Origin: Xylographa opegraphella
Lineage: Eukaryota
Reading direction: 5' to 3'
NCBI GenBank assembly: GCA_022813865.1
Contig: JALDZX010000001.1
Location: forward strand, 248,001-312,000
DNA length: 64,000 bases
Below are positions 29,775 to 46,741 of this stretch, piece by piece. Numbering within the stretch: the stretch's first letter is position 1; each line of letters starts with the position of its first letter. Made by a program: the position numbers and the translations under genes. Below the pieces are notes generated by a model that made no database searches, was not told where the DNA came from, and saw only the letters and a program-made list of their open reading frames with translations.

Positions 29775-32609
29775 TCAACTAACCGGCTCCACCTTTGTCG
29801 GCCCGTTCATCAGGCTCCGCTGTGGGCTACTCCGCCCGCCCGAGCCGCCCGCTCTCTTATCGTCCTCTGGCTCGTCATTGTAGTCCTCATCCATGTCCAT
29901 CTTCCTCGCCGCAGGCTCGAACGCCTCTCTGCGCTCATCTCGCGGCGGTTCAGCCATGGGTGGCAGATGCTGTTCAGGCTGCGTGTGTAATGCGGGGAGA
30001 ATCTGCGGGTGATGAGCCGCGTCCGAGGGATGATAGTTCTCGTTGGCACGATGCTGATCTTCGCGCCGAAGCTCGGACGAGCTCCGTCGTAATCGCTCGC
30101 GGGGTGATGATGGCCGTTCGGTTGGGGATACCCGGTGATAGTGGTGATCCTCAAGCCTTCCGCGGATGTCACCATTCGCAGGCTTCTTGTTGGGCAATTT
30201 GTAGTCCTCCTCTGTATCAATCACTCGCTTGAACCCTCCCATTGGCCGGTCATCTCGCTCACGAGCTGCAGCAGCCTCCGCGGCAGCCAGTGCAGCTGTA
30301 GGCGGGGGTGCGCCAGCAGCTATGCTTGCAGGCTGCGAAGTGTTCGAATGATGTTGGTACGGCTGGTGTGGGTACCCACCGCCTGGCGACGCTAGTCTAT
30401 CCTCAGTGATTGGCCTGATCTCCGGTGGTGGGCTATTACCCCGGCCGATAGGTGGCATCAAGCCAGGGCCACCCAGGTTGCCATTCGGTGGTGGTGGAGG
30501 TGGCGGGATAGCTGCGCTCGCAGCACCGTAATTCGGGTTTGTGATACGGGTCGGAGGAGCTTGTTGTGCTTGGAGAGGCTGTGGTTGAGGTAAGCCTTGT
30601 TGTAAAGGATACGAGGTAGGCCCCATGTGGTTCATGTTCTGGGGTGGAGGTGAAGGCCGTCGTACAGGAGTATGACGATGTTGTTCTTGGTATCGGATCT
30701 GTTCCACACGTGGACTTGGTTGCCTGGGCTGCGGCGGTGGTCTGATGGCGTCACGAGGGCCATACAAATTAGAGGGCGGTGGCTGAGGGTTATCGATGGC
30801 AGCTAGTCTTCGGTCCCAGTCACCCGCAGGACCAGGTGGAGCAGGTACCTGACCAAGAGGGCCAGGTGCTGGAGCTGGAACTCCCCATTGCACGCCAGGT
30901 GGTCCTGCAACACTGGCAGCCTGGTAGTGTTGCGGGTGTATGTCTTGAGGAACAGGAGCGGAATGATTAGGCATGCCATTAGAGTGCCCATTTCGGAGAA
31001 GCTGTAAGCGTGCCTTGATGTGAACGTTGGTGGGATCCAAGTCCGCTGCCCGTTGATAAGCATCGAGGGCGTCATTTGTCTGGTTACTGCACGATTCGTA
31101 CTGGTGTTGTTTCAGTGAAAAAGTAATTTGGAGAAATTCAATGACAGCAAACATACCAGCGTCCCGAGGTCATACCAGACTTCGGATATGTAAGGATTCA
31201 ACCGAATTGCCCTTGAATACGCGTCTAGTGCATCTCGGTACTGGTTGATTTGATAGTAGAGGACGCCAATTGAGCACCAGAAGGTAGGGTTCCGACCGTC
31301 CCGGTAAACTGCTTGCTGATACGCTTCATACGCTTTCGAGTACTTTTGTTGCGACATGTAGCAGCGGCCCAAAAGGTACCAACTTTGAGCATCGTTGTTG
31401 TCTAGAGCATTATCACTACTAAGCATCCGTCGTAGAGATCAAATCATGCTGGTACTCACCTGAGCTCACTGATTTCTCAAGGTACTCAATTGCTAGCTCC
31501 TGGCTGTGAAAGCTGTTACTCTGCAGATGATGCAGCCATCCTAGCTGTTGTAACACCTTGGCATGATTGGGATCTCGATCAAGGACCCGGCGATATGCAG
31601 ATTTTGCGGAATCGTACTTGTACACCAGTCAGTATATATACGCAACATAGGGAGGCTCGCTCACGTCTTTCTGTTGTTCATGAACGTGCCCAATTTGAAA
31701 CCAAATGTCTTCTTCTGTTAAAGGTCTTGGAGGGTCGTGGACGATATATGTAAAACACTATCAGTAGTATCAGCATTGGAAACATGGGTAACAGGTGATG
31801 ATGCGCGTACCTCGAGACTTTGCCCGAATTTCTGCTGTTGTTTGTATATTATTCCGAGACGGAAATATATTTCATTTGCCTTTTCGAAGTCTGGCTGCAT
31901 GCGCATCACTTGCGAAAAAGCCTCCTCGGCATGCTCCAGCGATCCATAACGGTCGTAAAGGATGCCGATCCCATACCATAGCTTTGGCTCCTAATAAGCT
32001 CACAGATTAGGATGCATTCCTCCGGCTAACGGGACGACTTCATACCTTGGGGTCTCTCAAGTAGTATAATGCCTGCTGATAAGCAGAATAAGCCTGTTGC
32101 AGGTCCTCCATCATTAAATAGCAGTGTCCTTGCTCCGGATTTAGCACAATATAGAAAGCGTCCGTACCCATGAAAACATACCTAGACTTCCCCAGACCTC
32201 GCCGTTGTTCGACTCCAGTTTCACAATTGCTTGTAGATACTCGACAGCTTTGGGGAAATTTTCTTTGGTCCGGAGTATACATGAGATAGCGTTCATCGCA
32301 GGTATGGAGAATTGGTTGTGACGAAGAGCTTGCTCGTAAGCAACAATAGCACCATCGAGGTCACCCATGAGCTCTGTCAGGTTTCCTACCGATATCGTCA
32401 GGCGAGAATCCTCGTCTCTGCAAAAGCTGTCAAGGAAACGTACCAATTTGCAGCCAGACAACTTCATTGAGTTGTGACATGTGCTGTGGAGTTATCGTTG
32501 GTTTCTGTTGCTGTGGCATATGGCCGTTCATTTGAGGATGAGCACCTGGCGGTCCATGATGTGGATGGAGTGCGCCAGGTGGAGAAGGCTGTCGCAGCTG
32601 GCTCGCCAT
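29775..32609 (-). CDS. SSN6: General transcriptional corepressor Ssn6/Cyc8 (TPR repeats)
   Basis: TPRs such as AYEQALRHN, WGSLGHCYLMMEDLQQAYSAYQQAL and AYEAYQQAVYRDGRNPTFWCSIGVLYYQINQYRDALDAYSRAIRLNP, followed by a Pro-rich tail. Eight exons traced. Confidence 0.96.
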
Positions 32610-35600
32610 CGGCGCAGAGCGCTCTCAGGAGAACGGTCCGTTCGAAAGGCAACGGTCGAATCGGCCGCTACGGAGCTGTCGATCGAGCTCTTGCGCCGCC
32701 TATGGTTCCTGATATCGACAGCAGATGAAATGAATTGCAAGGCGGCTGGATCGAAGACAGGCGGTGTCGGCAGGTTGGTGTTCCTATAGATCTGATAGGC
32801 GAAGACCCTCGAGTTGACCCCAGCACCGTTTAGGCCGTCCAAAATTGGCACAAACGAAGTTATTAATCACAATTTACAGTCGAGATGACATGAAATGATG
32901 AGCAGAACAGCGAGAGAATGCGGATGGGGATGGATCGCGAGTTTCAAGAGCACTCGATGGCAGCGTGGAGGACACGCCAGCGGATGGAAGAAGTGAGGGA
33001 GCCAGCTGCCGCGAGAGGAGACGGAGGTGGGATCTCGGGCTGCGGGCTGCGGGTTTCTAGGTGAGAGGAACACCACTAGCGCCTCGAGATGCTAGTGTGG
33101 AAGAGTGCTAGCGTGCCATCATTGAGCTTGACCAGTCAATCGTGGCGTCGAAAGGGTGGGGCCAGGGGGCAGGGGTGCGGGTGCCGTCAGAGCAGTGGCT
33201 CCCCTAGTGCACAGGCGGGAAAAGGATGAGGGTGGCATCGATCCCTGTCCATCCCGTGCACAGTAAGCGGATCCTTCTGCTGGCCTTACCCAGCCGAGCC
33301 AGCCCTGGTCGTTCCAGACTTGCTTCATATACGGAGGTACGGAGGACCACAGCTCCACCGTGTCTGTTATTTAGACGGTACGGAGGTACGCCGTACTGGG
33401 TGAGCTACGCGGGGCGCGGGTATCGCTCTGGTTGCTCGCTCACTACAACACGACGCCATAGGTGCTTGGATGAGAAGGCGGGGAGTAAGAGGTAGAGGTC
33501 GAGGTCGACATGCGACACGGCCGTTGTTCTTCGTGCCTGCCTATCTTATATCATTCCAACGGTGCTGGTCCCGTTACCGCGTGTTCACAAGGTGTCGAGA
33601 GCAGAAAGAGGCGCTTCACGATGCCGGCTGTAGGGTCCTTTCTCCCCACGGGCGGCAGTGAAAGGAAACAAACAATATGATTCTTTGCCATCCCCACTCG
33701 AGGACTCAATGCGCGAATACGGTATGATGTCATGTTCACGATCTTCGTTGCTGTGTTATCGTGAGCCGATCCGTCCTCGGCCATTTCACTTGTTTACACA
33801 AGCTGTTCACTCGTCGTTTCAGCGGTCTGTCCTTCAAGAAGGGAACCTACCGCACCTTGCTCGGCCCTGCTTTAAGGTACTTCTTTACCGCCTGATCCTT
33901 CTCCCGTCAATGGTAGCGAGAGATGAGGTACAGGATAATATTATCCGTCCACTAATCCCGGATTCGACACTGTCAGCCGCCGTCGTGCGCTTTTTAGAAA
34001 TTAGGACGGGTTGTGATTTGCACACCCCGAGCGGGTGAGGATACTTTCTGACTTCATCCTTTCTGGCACAGCAGCCGTTCGGTAGGTTAGACATGGGGGG
34101 CAACACCACCAAATCGCTAGAGGAAGTCTCCGACGTGTCCGCCCAGGGTGGTTTCACCTGCACATTCGGTCACAGCCGCATAAACACACTAACTAGGTAA
34201 GCTGCAGATCGGTTGCCAGCCTCTTTCCGGGTGCTCCAAGTTACAGTCGCCTTCCTTGCGCGGAGGGCGTGGGCGAGCGAATGATTGGCGGTTGCTTTCT
34301 GCTGTACACGACATGGTCATACAACCCGGCGGGCGTGCGAAGAGGGCAGATGGGGCGCTGCGCATATCAGATGCATCTCCGGTGACCGTTCGTTGGGCGA
34401 GAGAAAGCGATCACCCGGGGGCCGCTTGGCACGCTGGACAGGCTCATCCTGACCTCCTCGCGCTGACTGCAGGGTGGCTCACTACTCCTACTGGCAGGGC
34501 ACCATGACACTTCGCCGGTAAGCGCCATCGCTCCACGAGGCAGGAAATTGGGTGTTGCACGACAGGCGTGAACTCCTTGCTTGGGCGCCCGGAGGCCCAC
34601 GTACGGAAGAAGGAGGAGCACACCACCTCAACTTAAATAATGCACTTCGCATCCTCGTCATCTGCCATTCCTTCGGTGTAGTCTGTATAAGTATACACCA
34701 CTGTCGGACCGCTCCAGGAACTTCCACCGCCGGTAGTGTGTTGCGTTATGCTCGTCCTCGGTCCTTATGCGTCAACTATCCCCCCTTCACGTGGCTGGCT
34801 AGCACTGTGGGGTTGCCTTTCCCGCAGCCAGTAGTTTTTTTCAGAATCGCTTGTCTCGCTCCAGAGCTTCAAGCCACGCCCCCATTACGCTTCGTATGGT
34901 GCCTAAACTCGCAGGAAGACGATGAAGTCAAATCGAAATCAGCGACACAAATCCCCGCAGTCCACACATATCTGCACGCTTATTAGACACGCCTTTGGCA
35001 GAATGCGATGCTTGTGCACTGACGTTTGGAAAGCATCCCCGGACCTTACCGCATTTGCATTGCGCCATAGGTAACTATGATCTCCAGCTTTCTTTTAGCA
35101 GACCTATAAGCGCCTACCGACAGTCACATTCGGAATTCTACGAAACCCAAGAAGATGCTGCATTCTCCACGCAGGCGATCCGTTTTGATCTTGGTCGCCA
35201 CCACGCCAGCCACGAAGTACCAAATTGACGGCTTGTTCTTTGTCGGTCTCTTATCTGGTTCGAACCTTTGTACTCTATCGATGTTGAAGTTGAGGCGAAA
35301 GAGATACGACCCCACCAGAACCTGCAAGTCGTACACGAAGCTGTGCCGTGGTGAATAGAACTACTTTCCATGGATATAACATGACGGGGTAGACTACCTT
35401 ATATTCATGTTGATTGTGGAAGAACATTGGATCTGCAGGTCTTAATGTAGAAGGCTACGTTGATAGATATGCCTTGCTTCGCGACACTACTTCGAGCTTG
35501 CAGCTGCTTGAAGAGGGACATCACAGGAAGTAATGAAAATCAAACAAATGAATTCGCAAAGGTCTGTAAGATGTGATTGTGATTGCAAGTGCTCAAATAA

Positions 35601-35744
35601 ATGTTGGTGTACCTCCGTAGTTTCGCCCGAGGCCCGATCCCTCAGCGAGCCCTGTGGCTCGCTTAATTTAGTTTGCCCACACTTAAAAACCGCATCTTCA
35701 GATTTTGGCGTCTGAAATAGACGAAGACAACTGCCAACGCCAAC

Positions 35745-37224
35745 ATGTCACATAGGTAAGTCGCTGCAATTCTGCTGTCCACTTGTACTCCTTCTGCTGG
35801 TGATCTTTTCTCGCAGCTGCCAAGACCACTTCAACCTGTAAGCATTTACCAACTAAAAAACATTGCAGGAAGTTTGAAGCGCCTCGCCATGGCTCTCTGG
35901 CCTTCCTCCCGAGAAAGCGTGCTGCACGCCATCGGGGTCGTGTCAAGAGTTTCCCCAAGGATAACCCAAAGGCGCCTGTTCATCTGTATGTATACCTTTC
36001 TCGGCAATACAGCTTTATCTCTTGGGCTTGCACGACCATGGTGTAAATCTTGCTAACCCCAGCACAGGACGGCCGCCATGGGTTATAAGGCTGGTATGAC
36101 CACTATCGTCCGCGATCTTGACCGTCCTGGTGCAAAGATGCACAAGAAGGAAATTGTCGAGGCCGTCACGGTTATCGAGACTCCTCCTGTAAGCCAAGTC
36201 ATTGTTCAATGAGCATAAGCGCAAGCTAAGTCAATGCTACAGATGGTCGTTGTAGGTCTTGTTGGCTACATCGAGACTCCCCGCGGCCTTCGATCCCTAA
36301 CTACTGTCTGGGCTGAACATCTAAGCGATGAGGTTAAGAGACGGTTCTACAAAAACTGGTACAAGTCAAAGAAGAAAGCTTTCACCAAGTACGCCAAGAA
36401 ACACTCTGAGAACTCCGGGCAATCGATCACTCGCGAGCTCGAACGTATTACCAAATACTGCACTGTCGTCCGAGTGCTCGCCCACACTCAAATTCGGGAA
36501 ACTCCTTTGAAGCAAAAGAAGGCGCACTTGATGGAAATCCAAGTCAATGGCGGTAGTGTGGCAGAAAAGGTTGAGTTCGGCAAAGGACTCTTCGAGAAAA
36601 AGGTCGAGATCGACTCTATTTTCGAGCAGGATGAGATGGTTGATTGCATCGCTGTCACGAAGGGTCATGGTTTCCAGGGTGTCACGAGCAGATGGGGTAC
36701 CAAGAAGCTTCCGAGAAAGACGCACAAGGGATTAAGGAAGGTCGCTTGTATCGGCGCATGGCATCCGTCGCACGTCCAATGGACTGTCGCTCGAGCCGGT
36801 CAAGATGGATACCATCATCGTACTTCAGTGAACCACAAGGTTTACCGTATTGGCAAGGGTACAGAGGAAGGGAATGCCTCTACTGACTTCGACATCTCGA
36901 AGAAGCAGATCACACCGTAAGTACCATTTGCTTTACGACAAATGAAACCGAAGCTGACCTTGCAATAGTATGGGTGGTTTTGTTCGGTATGGTGAGGTCA
37001 AGAACGATTTCGTTGTACTCAAGGGTTCGGTTCCAGGTGTCAAGAAACGTATAATGACACTGCGCAAGTCAATGTTCGTACACACAAGCCGGAAAGCGCT
37101 GGAAAAAGTGGAACTCAAATGGATCGACACATCCTCGAAATTCGGCCATGGTGCGTACCAAACACCGTCGGAAAAGCGTGCTTTCCTTGGCACCCTCAAG
37201 AAAGATCTTGCGGCTGCTTCATAA
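35745..37224 (+). CDS. RPL3: 60S ribosomal protein L3 (uL3)
   Basis: Exons 35745-35755, 35869-35985, 36068-36188, 36243-36916, 36969-37224 give [21 protein letters not shown]...[21 protein letters not shown]...DTSSKFGHG. Confidence 0.98.
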
Positions 37225-37622
37225 TCATTGTGCAGAACTTTGTTATTGGTATGTCTGGAGCATGGGTTGAGATACTAGTGTTGCACCTAGGCTAGAATGA
37301 AAAAAAAAAGCCAAGTGCTTCCCTTGATTGTGCAACTGTCCAGTACCCCGGCGAGGTCATGACAAGAATACGTCGCCAGTGAATTCCTCTTAACCAGTTT
37401 TCGGTATGATACTTTGAGGTCCAAGTGAAGCAGATGCCCATTATCGACAGTGGATTGCGCACCCTTGCCCCTAGCTTAACCTTAGTGCGTCATCGTCTTT
37501 CCCAGCCAAGCTGCCTTTACCTCAGAGTTAGGAATAGAAATACAGTAACCGCAGGCTCTGGATCGCACCGAAACTTATCACAGCGTGAAATCCCCCCAGT
37601 TGCCCGCAATCGAAAGTGCGCA

Positions 37623-38201
37623 ATGTCATCCGACGAAGGTTACAGCGCCTTCCTCGACCAGGCCAACCAAGACACCGGCGCCGGCGATGCTTCGACTCAG
37701 TCAAGTCACGCACCGCTCAAGGCTACAGATACGGACGTTCCCGCCGCGCTGCAGGGGATCGAGCAAACGTACGTGTCCGAAGCGGACGAGCCGTTCGAGC
37801 CCGTGAGCTTGAAGTGGACGGGGCGGAGCATGCCGAGCGAGAGTAAGTGATCTTCTCTACTCTCCGACTGCCGACCGGCAAGGGCTCTCAAATCCCCTCT
37901 GATTTCTGGATAGCGAATTCCAGCAACTATGGAGCGATTGCTGATGAGCCTTGATGGTTGAGCAGATGATTTCGCGAGCCTGATCGGGCACAAAGCGGAG
38001 GTGTCGACGCTGTCGACGCGGGACTTCGATCCCAAGGGCGAGTACAAGGGGGTGATGGAGGCGGTGGAGAAGGCGGGAGATGGGAAGGTGCGGGTGTTCC
38101 GGGTGGAGGTGGGGAGCACGCGGGTGTGGTATTACGTGGTGGGGTGGGAGAAGGCAGCGGGGAAGGTGGTGGGCGTGAGGGCGAAGGCGGTGGAGAGTTG
38201 A
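37623..38201 (+). CDS. Small acidic protein resembling nuclease A inhibitor NuiA (151 aa)
   Basis: Exons 37623-37842 and 37966-38201 join in frame. Motifs YVSEADEPFEPV and YYVVGWEKAAGKVVGVRAKAVES* resemble NuiA FMSESEYPFEV and YVIGETPAGNLAGISTKVVET* as remembered. The gene model is firm; the family call is from recall. Confidence 0.75.
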
Positions 38202-39784
38202 TGTTGGGAGGGAGGTATCTGAGATGGAGGATATGACGGGGCTTTTGCTGAGGGGATCTGGAGGCATCCACCAGCTGGTTCTGAGGATCGGGATGGCTAG
38301 GCGCTGGGAATCGAACTGGTCAGGACCACGGTCGAGAACACCAGACGGGCGCGAAAGATGGAAAGCAAGTGTATTTCACGATGCATGGAATTACAGCGCT
38401 CTGTGAAGGTATGAGACCAGCGATTGTCTCTCTCGGGAACAGGCCTTGTGGACTTCACGATGCTGGCTCGACTTGTGACCCTCACCATCAGGCATAGAAG
38501 ACCCTTTTCTCCAGAAGTTCTCGCACAACTACTTGGCTTTGTATCAAAGACTGAAGCTACAGTGTTCCCAGCCTCAACAAATCCGGCCGCAGCAGTTCTT
38601 AATATGGAAGAAATACGGAAACATGGCAGCTGGACACACGTATGTGACAGCTGAGGCTCAATCGTTGCCAAGCGATCGGCGTACTGGCGAATGGGCGATC
38701 TTGGGGAGTCTTCTCCGTGGGATATTAATAGATCGCATTGCCGTGAAACTGCCGCAACGTCATTGGATGGCCCGGCAGCAAGAAAGAAACTGACGGGCCA
38801 AAAGACCTTGGAGTGGAATTCGGTTACCGAGCAGCATCTGAACCAGAAACAATCATGCTGCTCCGGTGAAGAGTGAAAGCTGATGGCTGGTCGTTTGTGG
38901 ACGAGCTCGATGGCGAATTATTGTCGCAATAATATAAAGCCAATTTCAGGGGCAGACATACTGGATGGGCCGGTGGGATAGATTGCAAGACCGTGCAAAA
39001 CGCTGGACATGATCATCAGTCTATCTCACTGTTCTCAATGTGCTGTACAGAAAGTACTCCGTAGTCATTTAGCATTAGCGGGTCTGGATGATTTCCCAAG
39101 TACAGAGACTTGTGTTCCATCATGCGTTGCTGACGCAGCTCACATTGCCACTGTAAGATTAATCCGGTTAGAGAACTCAGGCACACCGACAGGGGGGTGG
39201 TTCGGAATGACCCAGGGGATGGACGACCACAAAATTACCTTAGTGACGGCTCATTTTGCGTCGCCCCAAGCTCGTTTCTGCTCGACCGAAGGGAAACTAC
39301 CAACAAGCCAAAGCCATCTCAAAAAGACTGTCGCTCGTGAACACTTTTCGATCCTGCTTGAGCTTCATTCTATCTCATAGACTTTCGCTTTGATTCACAT
39401 TGACGATCCAACACGACGTTGACGCCTTCTCTCCCGGCCTTTTGACGTCCGGTCCTGCCTATTCCAAGCCTCTCCCTTCGATAGGAGACCACCCGCGTTA
39501 CTCGCATCAAAACACCCTTCTCTCAGCGCTGACAACCACAATCTTTCCCTCGTTCGCTGCCCGGTTGTCGCAATCGTGTTTGGATATGATACTGGAGGAC
39601 AACGTTTCAGGATAGAGACAACGAAAGAGGAGGCTGGTACCTGCTTTTTCTGCGACAACTGAAGTCTCAATTTATCACTCCGATCAGCCACAATCCACTC
39701 ACTGCATAACCATACCACTACGCGACAGAGGTAAACATCCATTCGTTCCACGTCCGAAAGGACAATCGATCTTTATTTCCGACC

Positions 39785-42124
39785 ATGTCCGACTCCAGCT
39801 CTTCTCCCATGCCACCCCACATCAGACTCAACTCCGCGCAAGAAAATATCCTCATCCAAGGGTCTCCGGACAACAGGTCAATACCCGCGCCATTGCAATC
39901 TCCTCCAGGAGGCAGATCTCTCATACCTCAACGGCCATCTACCGCAAATACAATACATCGGGCACCATCGACGCGAGGATTGCACAATGTCGGGCCAGCA
40001 GAGTCTGCAGAACTATTACTTCCTCCGTCGAGATCACGGACCCACCGATTTCGAGATGAAGACCCCTCGGCACGAGGTTACCCAGACGCAAACGGCTTCA
40101 GAACGCCAAGCGGCTTCTCGTCGAGGAGGACGAGTTGGAGCTCCGAAGGTGGCAGTAGGGATAGCAGGGTGTACGACTCGAATCCATTCGCTGACTCAAG
40201 AGCACCATCAAGGGCTGGTAGCGACGACGACAATGTCAATACACAAACTGTCTCCGAAAAATACAACATATTACCCTCTGCCGGATTGTTATTGTTCCCG
40301 GAAGATGTGGAGAAGGACGACTGGCTCCACAACCCCGATCCCAATGAAAAAGAAAAACGGGAATGTGACGTATTCACGAGGCGGGGAATGGTTAACGTTG
40401 GAGGACTCGCATTCATAACCCTCGGTGTTTTGATGCTCTTTATAGGATATCCCGTATTGTGAGTCTTCAAGATCAGCTGTTCTATTCATAGATTCCAGTA
40501 CCATTCATTCATCTAGCTGCAGCGTCACAGAAAGCACCAGCTAACGGGACACTTTACAGAACTTTTTTGAAGGGCATTGCGGATCCACCGGATCCATGCG
40601 CTTCTAATCCGGATTGTATCAATATCAAACAACCACTACTCGCCAACATACGGCCTGGCCTTATCGACAAGGACACGCCAAAATCTGCATACACGAAGAC
40701 TTCCGTCGATGGTTCACAGATGCAACTCGTTGTAAGTATCAGCACCGTTGCTCGATTGCCGAATGATTCGGTGCTAATTGTGATAGTTTTCGGATGAGTT
40801 TAATACACCTGGTCGTACCTTTTACCCCGGCGATGATCCGTATTGGACAGCAGTTGACATATGGTATGGAGTGACGCAGGATCTAGAGGTAAATAGATAA
40901 CGCCCATGCTTAGTGTTATGCTAAATCCATGATAGTGGTATGACCCCGATGCCGTGACAACCAAGGATGGCGCGCTGGAGATACGCTTTGATGCTTTCCA
41001 GAATCACGGGCTTAACTACCGCTCGGGGATGGTACAATCCTGGAACCAGATGTGCTTTCAAGGAGGACATCTCGAAGCGTCAATCTCATTACCTGGCCGC
41101 GGGGACACTGTTGGTTTTTGGCCGGGATTTTGGGCCATGGGCAATTTGGGCAGACCAGGTTACGCAGCCACTACGGATGGTCTATGGCCCTACAGTTACG
41201 ACAACGTATGTGATGCTGGAATCACCGCCAACCAGAGCCAGACAGATGGTCTCAACGGGTTACCTGGCATGCGATTACCGGCTTGCACTTGTAGTGGGGA
41301 GGATCACCCATCTCCCGGTGTTTCGCGCTCAGCACCAGAAATTGACGTAATTGAAGCCAGTGTGGGACACTTGGACGCGGTGGATCAAATCGGGCTTGTT
41401 TCACAAAGTGCCCAGTTCGCGCCATTCGACATCTGGTATGCACCAGATTATGGTAAGCCATTCGTTCCGTTCGAAGGACATATCAGCAGACTCTCTAACT
41501 CTTATACCAGAGTATGTCGAAGTGTATAACCCTCTCATCACCACAATGAACACTTATCGAGGCGGCACTTTTCAGCAAGCCATGTCAGGGGTTACGACGT
41601 TGAACAACGAGTGGTATGATGGTAATGCGTACCAGACGTACGCTTTCGAATATACACCAGGAGGCTCAGGTAAAATTAATTGGTTTGTGGGCGAAACATC
41701 TAGCTGGGCTATGGATGCTCGATCAGTGCGGCCGAACGGAAATGTTGGTCAGCGGATCATTCCCATGGAGCCTATGGCGATGATCATGAACTTCGGCATG
41801 TCCAACGGATTCTCGGCCCTCAATTTCACTGGTCTTGGTGCACTCTTGCCTGCGACCATGCGTTTTGACTATGTCCGAATATACCAAGACAATGATGCGA
41901 TAAGTGTCGGCTGTGATCCTCCCGGCTATCCGACATACGATTACATTCAGAATCACCCCGAAGCATATCAAAATCCTAACAAAACCCAATGGTACGTGTT
42001 ATGTGAGAGCATCCCGGGGCAGTACTGATACCTCTATAGGTCCCAAACCTCTCACCCACAGCCTAAAAACGCCCTTGTACATGGCTGTGAGGCTCAGGTC
42101 TCTGTTCCCATCACCTCCTCTTGA
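39785..42124 (+). CDS. KRE6: Beta-1,6-glucan synthesis-associated protein Kre6/Skn1 (GH16-like, type II membrane)
   Basis: Cytosolic N-terminus with [13 protein letters not shown] helix, [27 protein letters not shown], catalytic-like EIDVIE and [10 protein letters not shown]. Six exons. Confidence 0.95.
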
Positions 42125-43520
42125 CACTAGAAGTGTTCTCTGCATCACAGATCGCGTGTTCAGAAATTTCTTGTACAAAACAAACTTTTATGCATAGCGG
42201 AGTCAGCGTCATTTCACCACATCAATCTGCGGCCTCGAGTAATGCACTTGCGCCTACGACCTCTGCACCACTACCAACACGAAACACCACCTTACGGCTG
42301 TCTCACTTGCCTTCTGCATGCGCTCCTGTGCATAATTGCCTCGAAGGCATTTTGTCCGCTCGCAGTGAGAAGGCCCACGCTTAACCACTAGCCGGGCTTT
42401 CCTATACGCATATCATAGCATTGGGAGGTTCTCCTCGATTTTTATTTTCGTTTTCTAGCGGAAATTTACGCGCACAGGCATTTCCCCCCCCGCTGCGCTT
42501 GTACGGGCGTTTGCTGCTGCTGCATACGCGGAAGGCCCACTGCATCATAGATATTAGGCCTGGTGGCCACCCGGCGTCATTGTTGCTGGCCAAAGGGAGG
42601 ATAATCAGGCATTAACGTTGAATCAGCTACGACTACCAAGCTAGCTAGGCTCTCGTAGTCGACCGCAGTATGTAACATATTATGCGATATACCATATGTA
42701 GTGTGCCTTGTGACCTTCGCTGCCCCGTTGGTGATGGTCGTCGATAGGACCGCGGATGCTGTGGATGCGTGCGTGGATGCGGAAGCGGGAGCAAAAATCA
42801 GCATTTCGAGAGGGGACGGCTTCCTGCAGATGCAAGTGTCCGGCATGCATGGCGGCTGGGGGCGTACAACGGTGATTATCGTTGAGAGGAGGGTGGGGGT
42901 GGTGGTGTAGTGAGCGGTTGAGTACCTTACCTACTCCGTACCCTTTCCTTTCCTCCCCCTTTGATGGGATCTGGGCGCGGCAATGCTCGTCCACCCTCGT
43001 TCGATGTCCCTCGCTGCGTGATTGTAAGTTGCCTTTTCATACTTCTCGCTGTGCTTGGCTGAGCCTTTCTGTCTCTCTTTCTCTCGCTCTCTCTGTCTGG
43101 CTTTGGTATGTCTCGCGAAGTATCTGTCCGCAAGGGTGCGACTGAGTAGCATGCCGTGGTTGGAACGGCAGGAGGGTTGTGTCCGATAGTATAGCCCAAG
43201 TTTTGCCTTGTGTGCGCCGTTGAGTTAACCGTTCCGCTTTCCTCGCGTCTTGCGTTTATATATCACTCCTTTCTATTTTCTGTTCTCTACGTTCGATTTA
43301 CCGCGTGACGCTTTCTTACATTGTACGTCTGCATCCTAGTCCCCCTTGCGTTCTACGAATCCCCTATCGTCTCCGCTCACGCCCACCTAACCTACCCACC
43401 GCACCACCTCCTCGTCCGCGACGCTGTTCCTCCACATTTTCTACCCTCCATCGAAAACCAAGCTCCACCCTCACCAGCCTACCTCGCCCCGTCTCCCCAT
43501 CCTCGTCCCCCTACCACCAC

Positions 43521-43580
43521 CACCCCCTCAACCCTCACCACCCCCTCAACCCTCACCACCCCCTCAACCCTCACCACCCC
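43521..43580 (+). repeat. 18-nt tandem repeat (CACCCCCTCAACCCTCAC) x3
   Basis: Three direct copies immediately upstream of the ATG at 43594. Confidence 0.85.
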
Positions 43581-43593
43581 CACCCAACCAAAA

Positions 43594-44119
43594 ATGCCGC
43601 GCCCCACCGCGCTCCAAGACCGCCAAGCCCGCGGCCACCCCCCGCCCGCGCGCCAAGCGGCCCCGAAACGGCCGGCAGGCGCCTCCTCCTCCTCCACCTC
43701 CGCCGCCACCACTTCGGCAGCCTCTGCAACGACCGTGACGAACGCCACCGCAGCGACGACCGAGAACCGCACGCTCACGTACGCGGAGGAGCAGCGCATC
43801 GACGCCGCGGCGCGCGTGCTGGGCAGCTGGGAGGCGTTGGCGATGCATGCGAGTGCGGCTTCGGAGGTGGGTCGTTCCCGCTTTCTGTCTTTTGTAACAA
43901 AGTGATGGCGGGCTACGCAAGCAGGGTTGCTGACGCGTTGAGGGGAAGAGTATCCCGCAGACGAGACTACGGTTTGAGAAGATGTTGGTGGGGGTGGAGG
44001 AGGAGGGGGGGAGGGAGGAGGAGTGGGAGGATGAGCTGGATGAGGGGTGGGTGGCGGAGGGGGAGGGGGTGGGGGTGGGGACGGGGAAGGGGAAGGGGAA
44101 GGGGGGGAGGAAGCGGTAG
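43594..44119 (+). CDS. Small uncharacterised protein
   Basis: AAAATG start, exon to 43866, GTGGGT donor, GCTGAC branch site and AAG acceptor near 43948. Spliced core AARVLGSWEALAMHASAASE|SIPQTRLRFEKML, then an acidic/Gly-Lys tail. Confidence 0.6.
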
Positions 44120-45185
44120 CGGTGGGAGGGAAAGGATACGGACGGGCGTTGGTAGGCGTTTAATTTAAGAAACTCTCGAAGAAAAGAGGGGGGTAAATGG
44201 CTAGCTTAAATTCAAGCCCTAGGGAAACATCTACAAGCCAGGTAATAAAGATGATGATAATGGGCACGACACAACGCCCTCACCCCCCCTGACCCCTCTC
44301 TACCATTGCCCGTGCGGGAACATATGCACCGCATCTGCTTCCCCATTTCTCTCAGAACCCATCGACCGCGGAAGGAATGTGTCATGGCTCGCTCCCGCTA
44401 TCGTGGTGATGGTGTGCGGTTTCGATGCGTGCCCTGTTGCTCGTTCTTTGTGGCGCCCGGAGGGAAAGGGCAAGAATCCGGTTTGTGGAGTATGGGTTCG
44501 AGCGTTGATTGGTGTTTGGGAATGTTGTTTCTTCGGCTTACTATCGCTTGTCTGATTCGACTTTTGAATTTCCCGGGGCTCTCTGTCTCGTTCCTTGGGT
44601 GGGTAGGTGGCGAATGCGAAGGTTTCGTTGGATCTAGTGTCATTATCACGCATCGAGGATGCTGGCACTGCTTTTGGGTGGGGGGGGGGAAAGGGGAAGG
44701 AAATGGGCATCGTGAAGAGGATTTCTAGTGAAGAAGCACCAATCTCCCAGTTGCACGCGGCGGGACTGTCTGAGGAGAGCCTAGAAGGGGAAGGTGCGGA
44801 AAGGTGCAAAACCACATATACAAAAGTCAACGAGTTGGAAAGTGTGGAAATTTCCAAAGCCGGACTGGGCTCGTAGATGGCCGGACCTTACTGAGAACAC
44901 CCGATCTAACCGCGAAACGGTGGTAAGGTTCATCTGATCCCTATACATTCCCACCGATATGCGTGTGAACTTGTACATAACTTTGTCCATACGCTACCTT
45001 ACTGCCAGCCCATGCTGCGTTCACAACGAGTCCTCGTCGTCTCTTCTCGGCACGCCTTCCTCGTTGACCATGCTCTCCGCGTCGCCGACCTGTTTCCGCG
45101 TGCTGATCTCCCGACTGCGCAAGCGCGACCGCATTGCCGATTTCAGCGTCAATCCTTGGGTGTTACCCCTCATGACTGCTAATTG

Positions 45186-46741
45186 TTATTGCAAAGGTTC
45201 TGAGCTGGATGACAGTCGATTGAGATGGAGGTACACATCGGTTCCATAACTGGCGAGTAGGGGATCAGCAAAGGGTTTCACCAACGCTCAGGCTCTGGTA
45301 GGAGAGAGTAACTCACCCTTCCATACTAATAAGCTTCAGGTCTCCGCCGAAGTATCTTGCATATAATCTACTAATGGGTAGTCCGTATCCAAAGCCAGCC
45401 ATGGGTGCCTTGAAGTCGCTTTTGTCAAAATCCGGATCCAAATTGGGAGTTGCTTCAACAGTCGTATACATATATGTCCACACCAGCGGTATCACGCTCC
45501 GAGGTATCCCTCCACCTTCGTCCGAGATTTTTATTGTAATGTCTTCTTTCCCTTCTGCTACGACAACTTTGGTTACCGGAAATTCGTCCTTGTGCTGCCC
45601 ATGCCTCTCCACTACTGCTCGAAGCGAATTCTTGAGCGTCTCGAAAAGCATATGCGACAAGTGCCCCGGCACGTACATGAAATGTAGATCAGGTTTGCAT
45701 ACGAGCTGCACCTTTGGAGCGTCGAATAGGCCGTAATGGTCCTCGCAGACAAAGCGGGCATTGTCGATGGCTTCTTGAGCCAACTCTCGCACATTTGTTT
45801 TCGTACATATTATGCCCACATAGTTAGGGTCCACCGACGCTCTTTGATCTGTGAGAGCAATATGCTGCCCTATAAGCATTCGTATTCCAATCCGTGACAT
45901 ATAAAACCTATCGAGGAAAGCCTGAATATTTGAGTCGATTTGCATACGTTGTCGTTTACGTTTGTATTCAAGGATACCCTGAGCTGTTCGAATGAATAAG
46001 CTGGCGGTCATCGGTATCATAAAGGATGCACAGACCAACTGTTGTTACCACGCTGTCATGCCGCCGCTTGATGCCCTCCAGAGTCTTTGCGAATCTCTTG
46101 TTATAGTCATTGAGCTCTGGAGGCCAGTCATCTCCATCATCCGCAGCGGCATAGTATCTTCTTGTTGCGCTCTTGGTTCCGTTGCCATTCCCATTCTGCT
46201 TCCCTTTTGCGGACGGTAGAGATCGATATTGGCCTTGCTTGACACTAGGATTTGCTGTGGTTTCGATCAGGATTTTGGATTCCCGACCAGTAGATCTGGC
46301 AGGCCTGAGTAATCTTTCCCGAGTATCTGAAGGTAAATTTGGGCGCGAAAGAGTCGTAATATCCTAGATCTTTGATCAATAGGCATTATGGCGCGGCGCC
46401 AAGACTTCTCATGTACCTCAAATGATTGTGCATACCAGTCCTGCACCTTCTTTATCGACGGCATCTCATTCAAGCTATCTGGTAGATCTCCAAGCTCCTG
46501 CACGCGATGTGCTAACCGAATGGGGAGCTCTTCGGACAGGAATTGAGAAGCACGGAATAGAGTACCTATGATCGTTGCAAAGAATAAGCGGTAGCAATTG
46601 ACATGGAGCCTCCTTGTGGCTGGTACCTGTTGAAGGCTTCTCGCCAAACTGAACCATCTGCCTCAAACTCACACCCGTGGCAGGAAATTGCGAGTAATGC
46701 TTGATGGTGTCCATCAGCTTGTCCGTCTTTTTCCACGACAT
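45186..46741 (-). CDS. Mitochondrial pyruvate dehydrogenase (alpha-ketoacid dehydrogenase) kinase
   Basis: ELPIRLAHRV, FLDRFYMSRIGIRMLIGQH, N-box ETLKNSLRA, G1 SDEGGGI, G2 GFGYGLPISRLYARYFGG and terminal GYGTDVYLHLNRLSSSSEPLQ. Five exons. Confidence 0.96.

Follow-up and report, generated by a model that had tools for sequence, protein, structure and literature searches.

This analysis focused on a small gene at positions 37623-38201 (+ strand) of a 64,000-nucleotide stretch of Xylographa opegraphella DNA (contig JALDZX010000001.1, positions 248,001 to 312,000; hereafter, the window), and on the question of whether a fungal relative of NuiA, the bacterial inhibitor of the nuclease NucA, still blocks a nuclease and, if so, which one. 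A reading made from the letters of the window (the sequence-only reading) had proposed a cytosolic inhibitor of a NucA relative, either mitochondrial Nuc1/EndoG or a secreted nuclease. We consider the protein most likely to be an inhibitor of the fungus's own Nuc1, with a rough probability of 0.55; because the active-site plug of the bacterial blocker is kept, it is probably a guard against the cell's own mitochondrial nuclease. The computed basis comprises a NuiA fold, an acidic loop, an exact stop at a hydroxyl-bearing residue, no targeting signal, and one DRGH nuclease with an intact site in the genome.

Family membership and active-site residues

The gene was found to have two exons, as had been proposed, and its spliced product of 151 aa plus stop is identical to the GenBank hypothetical protein MMC26_000093 of X. 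opegraphella. Exon 1 (37623-37842, 220 nt) carries codons 1-73 plus one base, and is followed by a phase-1 GT-AG intron of 123 nt (37843-37965, GTAAGT...CAG), and by exon 2 (37966-38201, 236 nt), which completes codon 74 and continues to the stop. The whole protein matched the Pfam family PF23151 (NuiA_2, 'NuiA-like') with 183.2 bits against a cut-off of 27, across profile positions 1-154. This is not a chance match, because each exon alone exceeds the cut-off (exon 1, profile positions 1-78, E 4.9e-23, 82 bits; exon 2, E 3.5e-24, 86 bits). The NuiA family itself, PF07924, was matched narrowly (24.2 bits, cut-off 22.1; exon 2 alone, E 0.017), and while all 91 aligned relatives matched PF23151, 50 of the 91 matched PF07924 at E 0.01. 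The predicted model is a single alpha/beta domain with the NuiA alpha/beta sandwich fold, as found by structure match and HHalign, so that the proposed homology to NuiA held, although identity to the Nostoc/Anabaena PCC 7120 protein is 20-21%.

It had been suspected that a fold-level annotation might already exist, and PF23151 is such a case. The entry carries the label 'NuiA-like' only, and a literature search gave no paper naming PF23151; GenBank labels of relatives are nearly all 'hypothetical' or 'uncharacterized'. The resemblance to NuiA is thus on record while, within the reach of the literature search, the function is not. Two relatives with other names, from Physcia ('AP-3 complex subunit sigma', P0008) and Cryomyces ('PepSY domain-containing protein', P0079), have PF23151 as their sole match and look mis-annotated. 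P0002, P0007 and other calls of 170-190 residues include the translation of a short in-frame intron and so show a spurious insertion after residue 73.

The NuiA motifs cited in the sequence-only reading agree with the Nostoc PCC 7120 protein. The acidic loop S52-E53-x-D55-x-P57-F58 (37776-37796) corresponds to S23-E24-x-E26-x-P28-F29 of NuiA, with Glu53 (GAA, 37779-37781) in the place of Glu24, as predicted. The last strand, G143...V149-E150-S151-stop (38172-38201), corresponds to G127...V133-E134-T135-stop and leaves a free C-terminal hydroxyl residue; the final codons are GTG GAG AGT TGA.

For counts of conservation, representatives at 50% identity were used, the best 150 of 808. Of these, 129 span to the profile end, and 128 of the 129 stop exactly there (Ser in 117, Thr in 11), with one extended. 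The loop pattern was matched in 144 of the 150, with Asp (88) or Glu (55) at position 53 in all but one of them (Leu). The expectation of an invariant SE motif was therefore borne out for the acidic residue, but the motif itself is S-[D/E]. When 80 fungal loci were read directly from DNA, 77 finished with [VI][EQ][ST]-stop and the other three had no C-terminal match, so a hydroxyl-bearing last residue with the stop at the NuiA position, as the sequence-only reading had it, was seen at every readable locus (77/77). Among 49 distinct ends, Ser was encoded by AGY in 34 and by TCN in 11, Thr occurred in four, and all three stop codons were used; the codons vary, while the hydroxyl residue and the stop position stay constant. 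N-terminal extensions of more than 20 residues occurred in 80 of 146 gene calls, compared with the single C-terminal extension in 129.

The C-terminal Thr of NuiA directly binds the catalytic Mg2+ (PMC5587815, and as described in PMC2790893), and PMC5374557 reports a hydrogen bond D121-E24 in the NucA-NuiA complex; a sequence check assigned D121 to NucA and E24 to NuiA. By analogy with that complex, the last Ser/Thr of the fungal protein would bind the catalytic Mg2+, and Asp/Glu at position 53 would mimic a phosphate within the active site.

Two further features had gone unremarked in the sequence-only reading, namely the loss of the Asp75/Trp76 segment and the gain of a conserved N-terminal helix. 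A short turn, F94-D95-P96...Y100 (38025-38045), replaces a 21-residue segment of NuiA containing Asp75 and Trp76. Three sets of rows were compared: alternate rows among the first 30 of the cyanobacterial alignment, all 30 fetched Cytophagales loci, and every third row of the fungal alignment. Between NuiA F66 and F88 there are 21 residues in 15/15 cyanobacterial rows and 19-21 in 30/30 Cytophagales rows, but 3-5 in 31/31 fungal rows; Trp76 is present in 15/15, 22/30 and 0/31, respectively. HHalign placed this gap too, with its register shifted slightly. Asp75/Trp76 reportedly form the second contact site of NuiA, giving strength and specificity, a finding ascribed to Ghosh et al. 2007.

The N-terminal motif D-x-x-Y-x-x-F-L-x-x-A-N (residues 4-15, 37632-37667) is specific to the fungal proteins and lies outside the NuiA-aligned part. 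Across the 91 aligned sequences Y7, F10 and L11 are invariant, and D4, A14 and N15 are each conserved in at least 90%. It was modelled as a short helix, with low pLDDT, on a variable linker (residues 16-33), a pattern that may indicate an element folding upon a partner. Speculatively, the helix on its flexible linker could supply a second contact, in place of Asp75/Trp76.

Seven fusions of HIT and NuiA domains, each in a different Cytophagales genome, have NuiA at the C-terminal end of frames of 281-339 residues; they end in ET or ES and lack Trp76. The N-terminal HIT domain was identified in two of them (L094, by Pfam, and L091). A PF01223 gene, in a frame of 498-566 residues, is found 3.6-16 kb away from the fusions.

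Nuc1 as the candidate target

The X. opegraphella genome gave one match to PF01223, an intronless Nuc1/EndoG of 341 aa with a hydrophobic N-terminus and a pI of 9.3, located on a different contig from the NuiA-like gene. Its alignment to NucA, at 31%, brings the DRGH motif, the metal-binding Asn, a Trp and a Glu into register; we take these residues to have the corresponding active-site roles, and all are invariant in 110 fungal sequences. No further NucA-type nuclease was above cut-off in a genome search with four nuclease families, which gives a lower bound. The secreted NucA-like partner that had been offered as an alternative was thus not among the products of that search, and because of this, Nuc1 is the one endogenous candidate left.

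The NuiA-like proteins are acidic (pI below 5.5 in 90 of 91) and hydrophobic leaders were seen in none of the 91, in agreement with the cytosolic character proposed earlier; acidity and the lack of a leader fit a predicted location in the cytosol or nucleus. There, the small acidic protein would inhibit Nuc1/EndoG that is mis-sorted to these compartments or leaks from mitochondria. According to PMC3971528, cytosolic EndoG kills cells, and the Neurospora endo-exonuclease is treated as an EndoG orthologue. In PMC10089162, Nuc1/EndoG is linked to DNA fragmentation in dying cells and, in yeast, to restraint of the L-A mycovirus; that work leaves open how a nuclease of mitochondria could act harmlessly in the cytosol.

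The pair would act in trans, as do EndoG and EndoGI of Drosophila, and therefore no gene linkage is expected. None was found: as had been noted, no cognate nuclease is adjacent, and a NucA-family gene lay beside the fungal gene in 0/80 loci, including 0/20 distinct loci with a 4-kb flank at either end. The contrast drawn earlier with the nucA-nuiA pair stands in that the fungal gene is unlinked, but this is not unusual. Loci close to Nostoc NuiA do have a convergent nucA within the 3-kb flank (62/68). In a sample of 121 genomes of Cytophagales (the order of Larkinella), however, PF07924 occurred in 37, with no nuclease within 1.5 kb of nuiA at the 30 fetched loci and no PF01223 gene within 25 kb on the contig for 30 of the 37 genes, so that linkage to nucA is not a strict family trait. 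PF01223 was nevertheless present somewhere in the genome in 36/37 PF07924-bearing Cytophagales compared with 37/84 others (Fisher p 3e-9, or p 0.027 in 38 size-matched genomes, neither corrected for kinship). Among 151 cyanobacterial genomes, PF01223 was found in 10/11 with a strong NuiA match, 1/4 with weak tandem matches only, and 8/136 others. On these counts, an unlinked NuiA that acts in trans is ordinary.

Tandem NuiA-like proteins of 270-420 residues were seen at five loci (L199-L202 and L204), each in a different cyanobacterial genome; domain 1 has an S-[ED]-S-[DSC]-Y-P loop and domain 2 ends in W-T, W-S, W-S-G or D-T. A stand-alone gene of the nuclease A inhibitor family occurs on a Deinococcus plasmid (L189:3854-4387), with no nuclease annotated within 4 kb. 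One metagenome-assembled genome labelled Acetobacteraceae carries a cyanobacterial-type nuiA-nucA (L014); the class derived from it overlaps the cyanobacterial sample, and the label is probably wrong.

Inheritance in fungi and alternative explanations

The gene is single copy in the X. opegraphella genome. Relatives named among the best 150 of 808 come from lichen-forming fungi and from others, among them Geopyxis, Dactylellina, Penicillium, Blastomyces, Cladophialophora, Fusarium, Sporothrix, Thermothelomyces, Blumeria, Diplodia, Xylona and Trichoglossum, which together, by the classes we assume for them, span the Pezizomycotina. Its neighbours in the window are the gene for ribosomal protein L3 (3' coding part, 36219-37224, +, PF00297) and a SKN1/KRE6 glucan synthesis-associated gene (39710-42028, +, PF03935). 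In every one of the 20 distinct fungal loci that extend 4 kb to either side, in which the best segment is 36-71% identical, L3 or KRE6 adjoins it; where flanks sufficed, L3 was upstream on the same strand in 18/26 distinct loci and SKN1/KRE6 was present in 18/21. A phase-1 intron 20-25 codons past the S-[DE] motif was readable in 33 of 53 distinct loci, and in a tree with bacterial rows a long branch has the fungal rows together on one side. The gene is old and vertically inherited, and was not acquired recently from a lichen partner, while the family is probably of bacterial origin and the protein a likely descendant of a bacterial nuclease blocker. The conserved block of the window (29775-46363) also contains a TPR protein gene, presumably SSN6/CYC8-like, and a TPR gene was near the NuiA-like gene in 28/80 fungal loci.

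Several points weigh against Nuc1 as the target. The Asp75/Trp76 segment, reportedly the second contact site, is absent from the fungal proteins; the Trp76-less HIT-NuiA fusions show that it is dispensable there, and are uninformative on function. The nuclease search was a lower bound from four families, co-presence of Nuc1 is weak support because Nuc1 is near-universal in fungi, and the bacterial co-occurrence statistics ignore kinship. Nuc1/EndoG is described as a homodimer (PMC2790893), which raises the matter of room for a NuiA-type inhibitor. Lastly, the divergent tandem proteins of cyanobacteria end in T or S in four of six fetched, a fifth in S-G, and three are in genomes without a PF01223 match, so that a hydroxyl C-terminus alone does not name a NucA-family target; it may be better taken as a mark of kept mechanism than as a pointer to the target.

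These same tandem relatives, together with plug residues kept while the specificity segment was lost and a new invariant element gained, would suit a metal-bridge inhibitor of some other endogenous Mg2+-dependent enzyme, a nuclease or phosphoesterase, with the N-terminal helix setting a new specificity. We regard this as unlikely, though it is the strongest of the rivals, given that canonical NuiA tracks PF01223 in both bacterial groups tested and that the genome encodes a suitable DRGH nuclease whose site is intact. If inhibition had been lost altogether, the protein might be an adaptor or chaperone on a NuiA scaffold, its loop and terminal hydroxyl kept for folding or for a non-enzyme partner. 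A purely structural role would rarely forbid C-terminal extension (128/129) while N-terminal extensions abound (80/146), and it explains the kept acidic loop less well, which makes this rather improbable. Least probable is a role in immunity, in which the protein would neutralize foreign NucA-type nucleases entering the cytosol from bacteria or competing fungi. Retention of only the plug could give a broad range, the specificity segment is lost, the family seems to be of bacterial origin, and NucA-family nucleases are common in bacteria (73/121 and 19/151 genomes); but a single-copy gene with fixed neighbours in 20/20 distinct long loci, present across the named Pezizomycotina classes including Blumeria, looks like housekeeping and not an arms race.

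Inhibition of Nuc1 thus stays the favored explanation, and the single-copy gene and predicted mechanism make the question of a fungal inhibitor directly testable. If that is correct, the protein would be a natural and compact inhibitor for a eukaryotic EndoG. Its function should not survive a C-terminal tag, and tagged libraries would therefore have missed it.

Comparison with known nuclease inhibitors

A 2026 review (PMC13522737) cites proteins that inhibit nuclease O of Aspergillus oryzae (Uozumi et al. 1976) and the endo-exonuclease of Neurospora crassa (Hatahet and Fraser 1989), and the X. opegraphella protein is like both of these uncloned factors in being a proposed protein inhibitor of a non-specific nuclease in filamentous ascomycetes. 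Its relatives in Thermothelomyces and Penicillium have 165-177 aa, 18-19 kDa and pI 4.3-4.5. These genera belong, as we understand it, to the Sordariales and Eurotiales, the same orders as the two inhibitor sources, and the inhibitors of the 1976 and 1989 studies were reportedly about 22-24 kDa with a low pI; the closeness in size and acidity is a lead only. Neither of these two inhibitors, purified decades ago, is known to us to have been tied to a gene, and we know of no sequence link; nuclease O is presumably a Nuc1 orthologue. A difference is that NuiA is competitive, whereas inhibition by the uncloned inhibitors was largely non-competitive, according to PMC13522737 and PMC5758888. A joint explanation can be offered tentatively, as one that may well prove wrong: a single ancient fungal uptake of a bacterial immunity protein, with its specificity loop cut and a docking helix added, would have produced a Nuc1/EndoG guard identical to the uncloned inhibitor of the Neurospora endo-exonuclease and nuclease O, acting as a set-point for nuclease-driven cell death, autolysis and mycovirus control, and convergent with EndoGI.

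Drosophila EndoGI (PDB 3ISM; PMC2790893) is similar in its proposed role of a backup that is kept away from the EndoG of mitochondria and reaches the metal in the active site, but is described there as consisting of tandem helical solenoid domains of unrelated fold that contact the metal's water shell, and as having evolved independently of NuiA. NuiA of PCC 7120 (PF07924; PDB 2O3B chain B, 1J57) shares the fold, the S-E-x-[ED]-x-P-F loop and the G...[VI]-E-[TS]-stop end, and both proteins are small with a low pI. The fungal family differs from it in ending in Ser more often than Thr, in carrying Asp and Glu equally often at position 24, in the eukaryotic gene with an intron and no nucA beside it, in the added conserved N-terminal helix and in the deletion of the Asp75/Trp76 segment. 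In sequence, the X. opegraphella protein is no different from other members of PF23151. It is a plain member of that family, like NuiA at the active-site end, yet not a canonical NuiA, because it lacks the Asp75/Trp76 site and the gene linkage.
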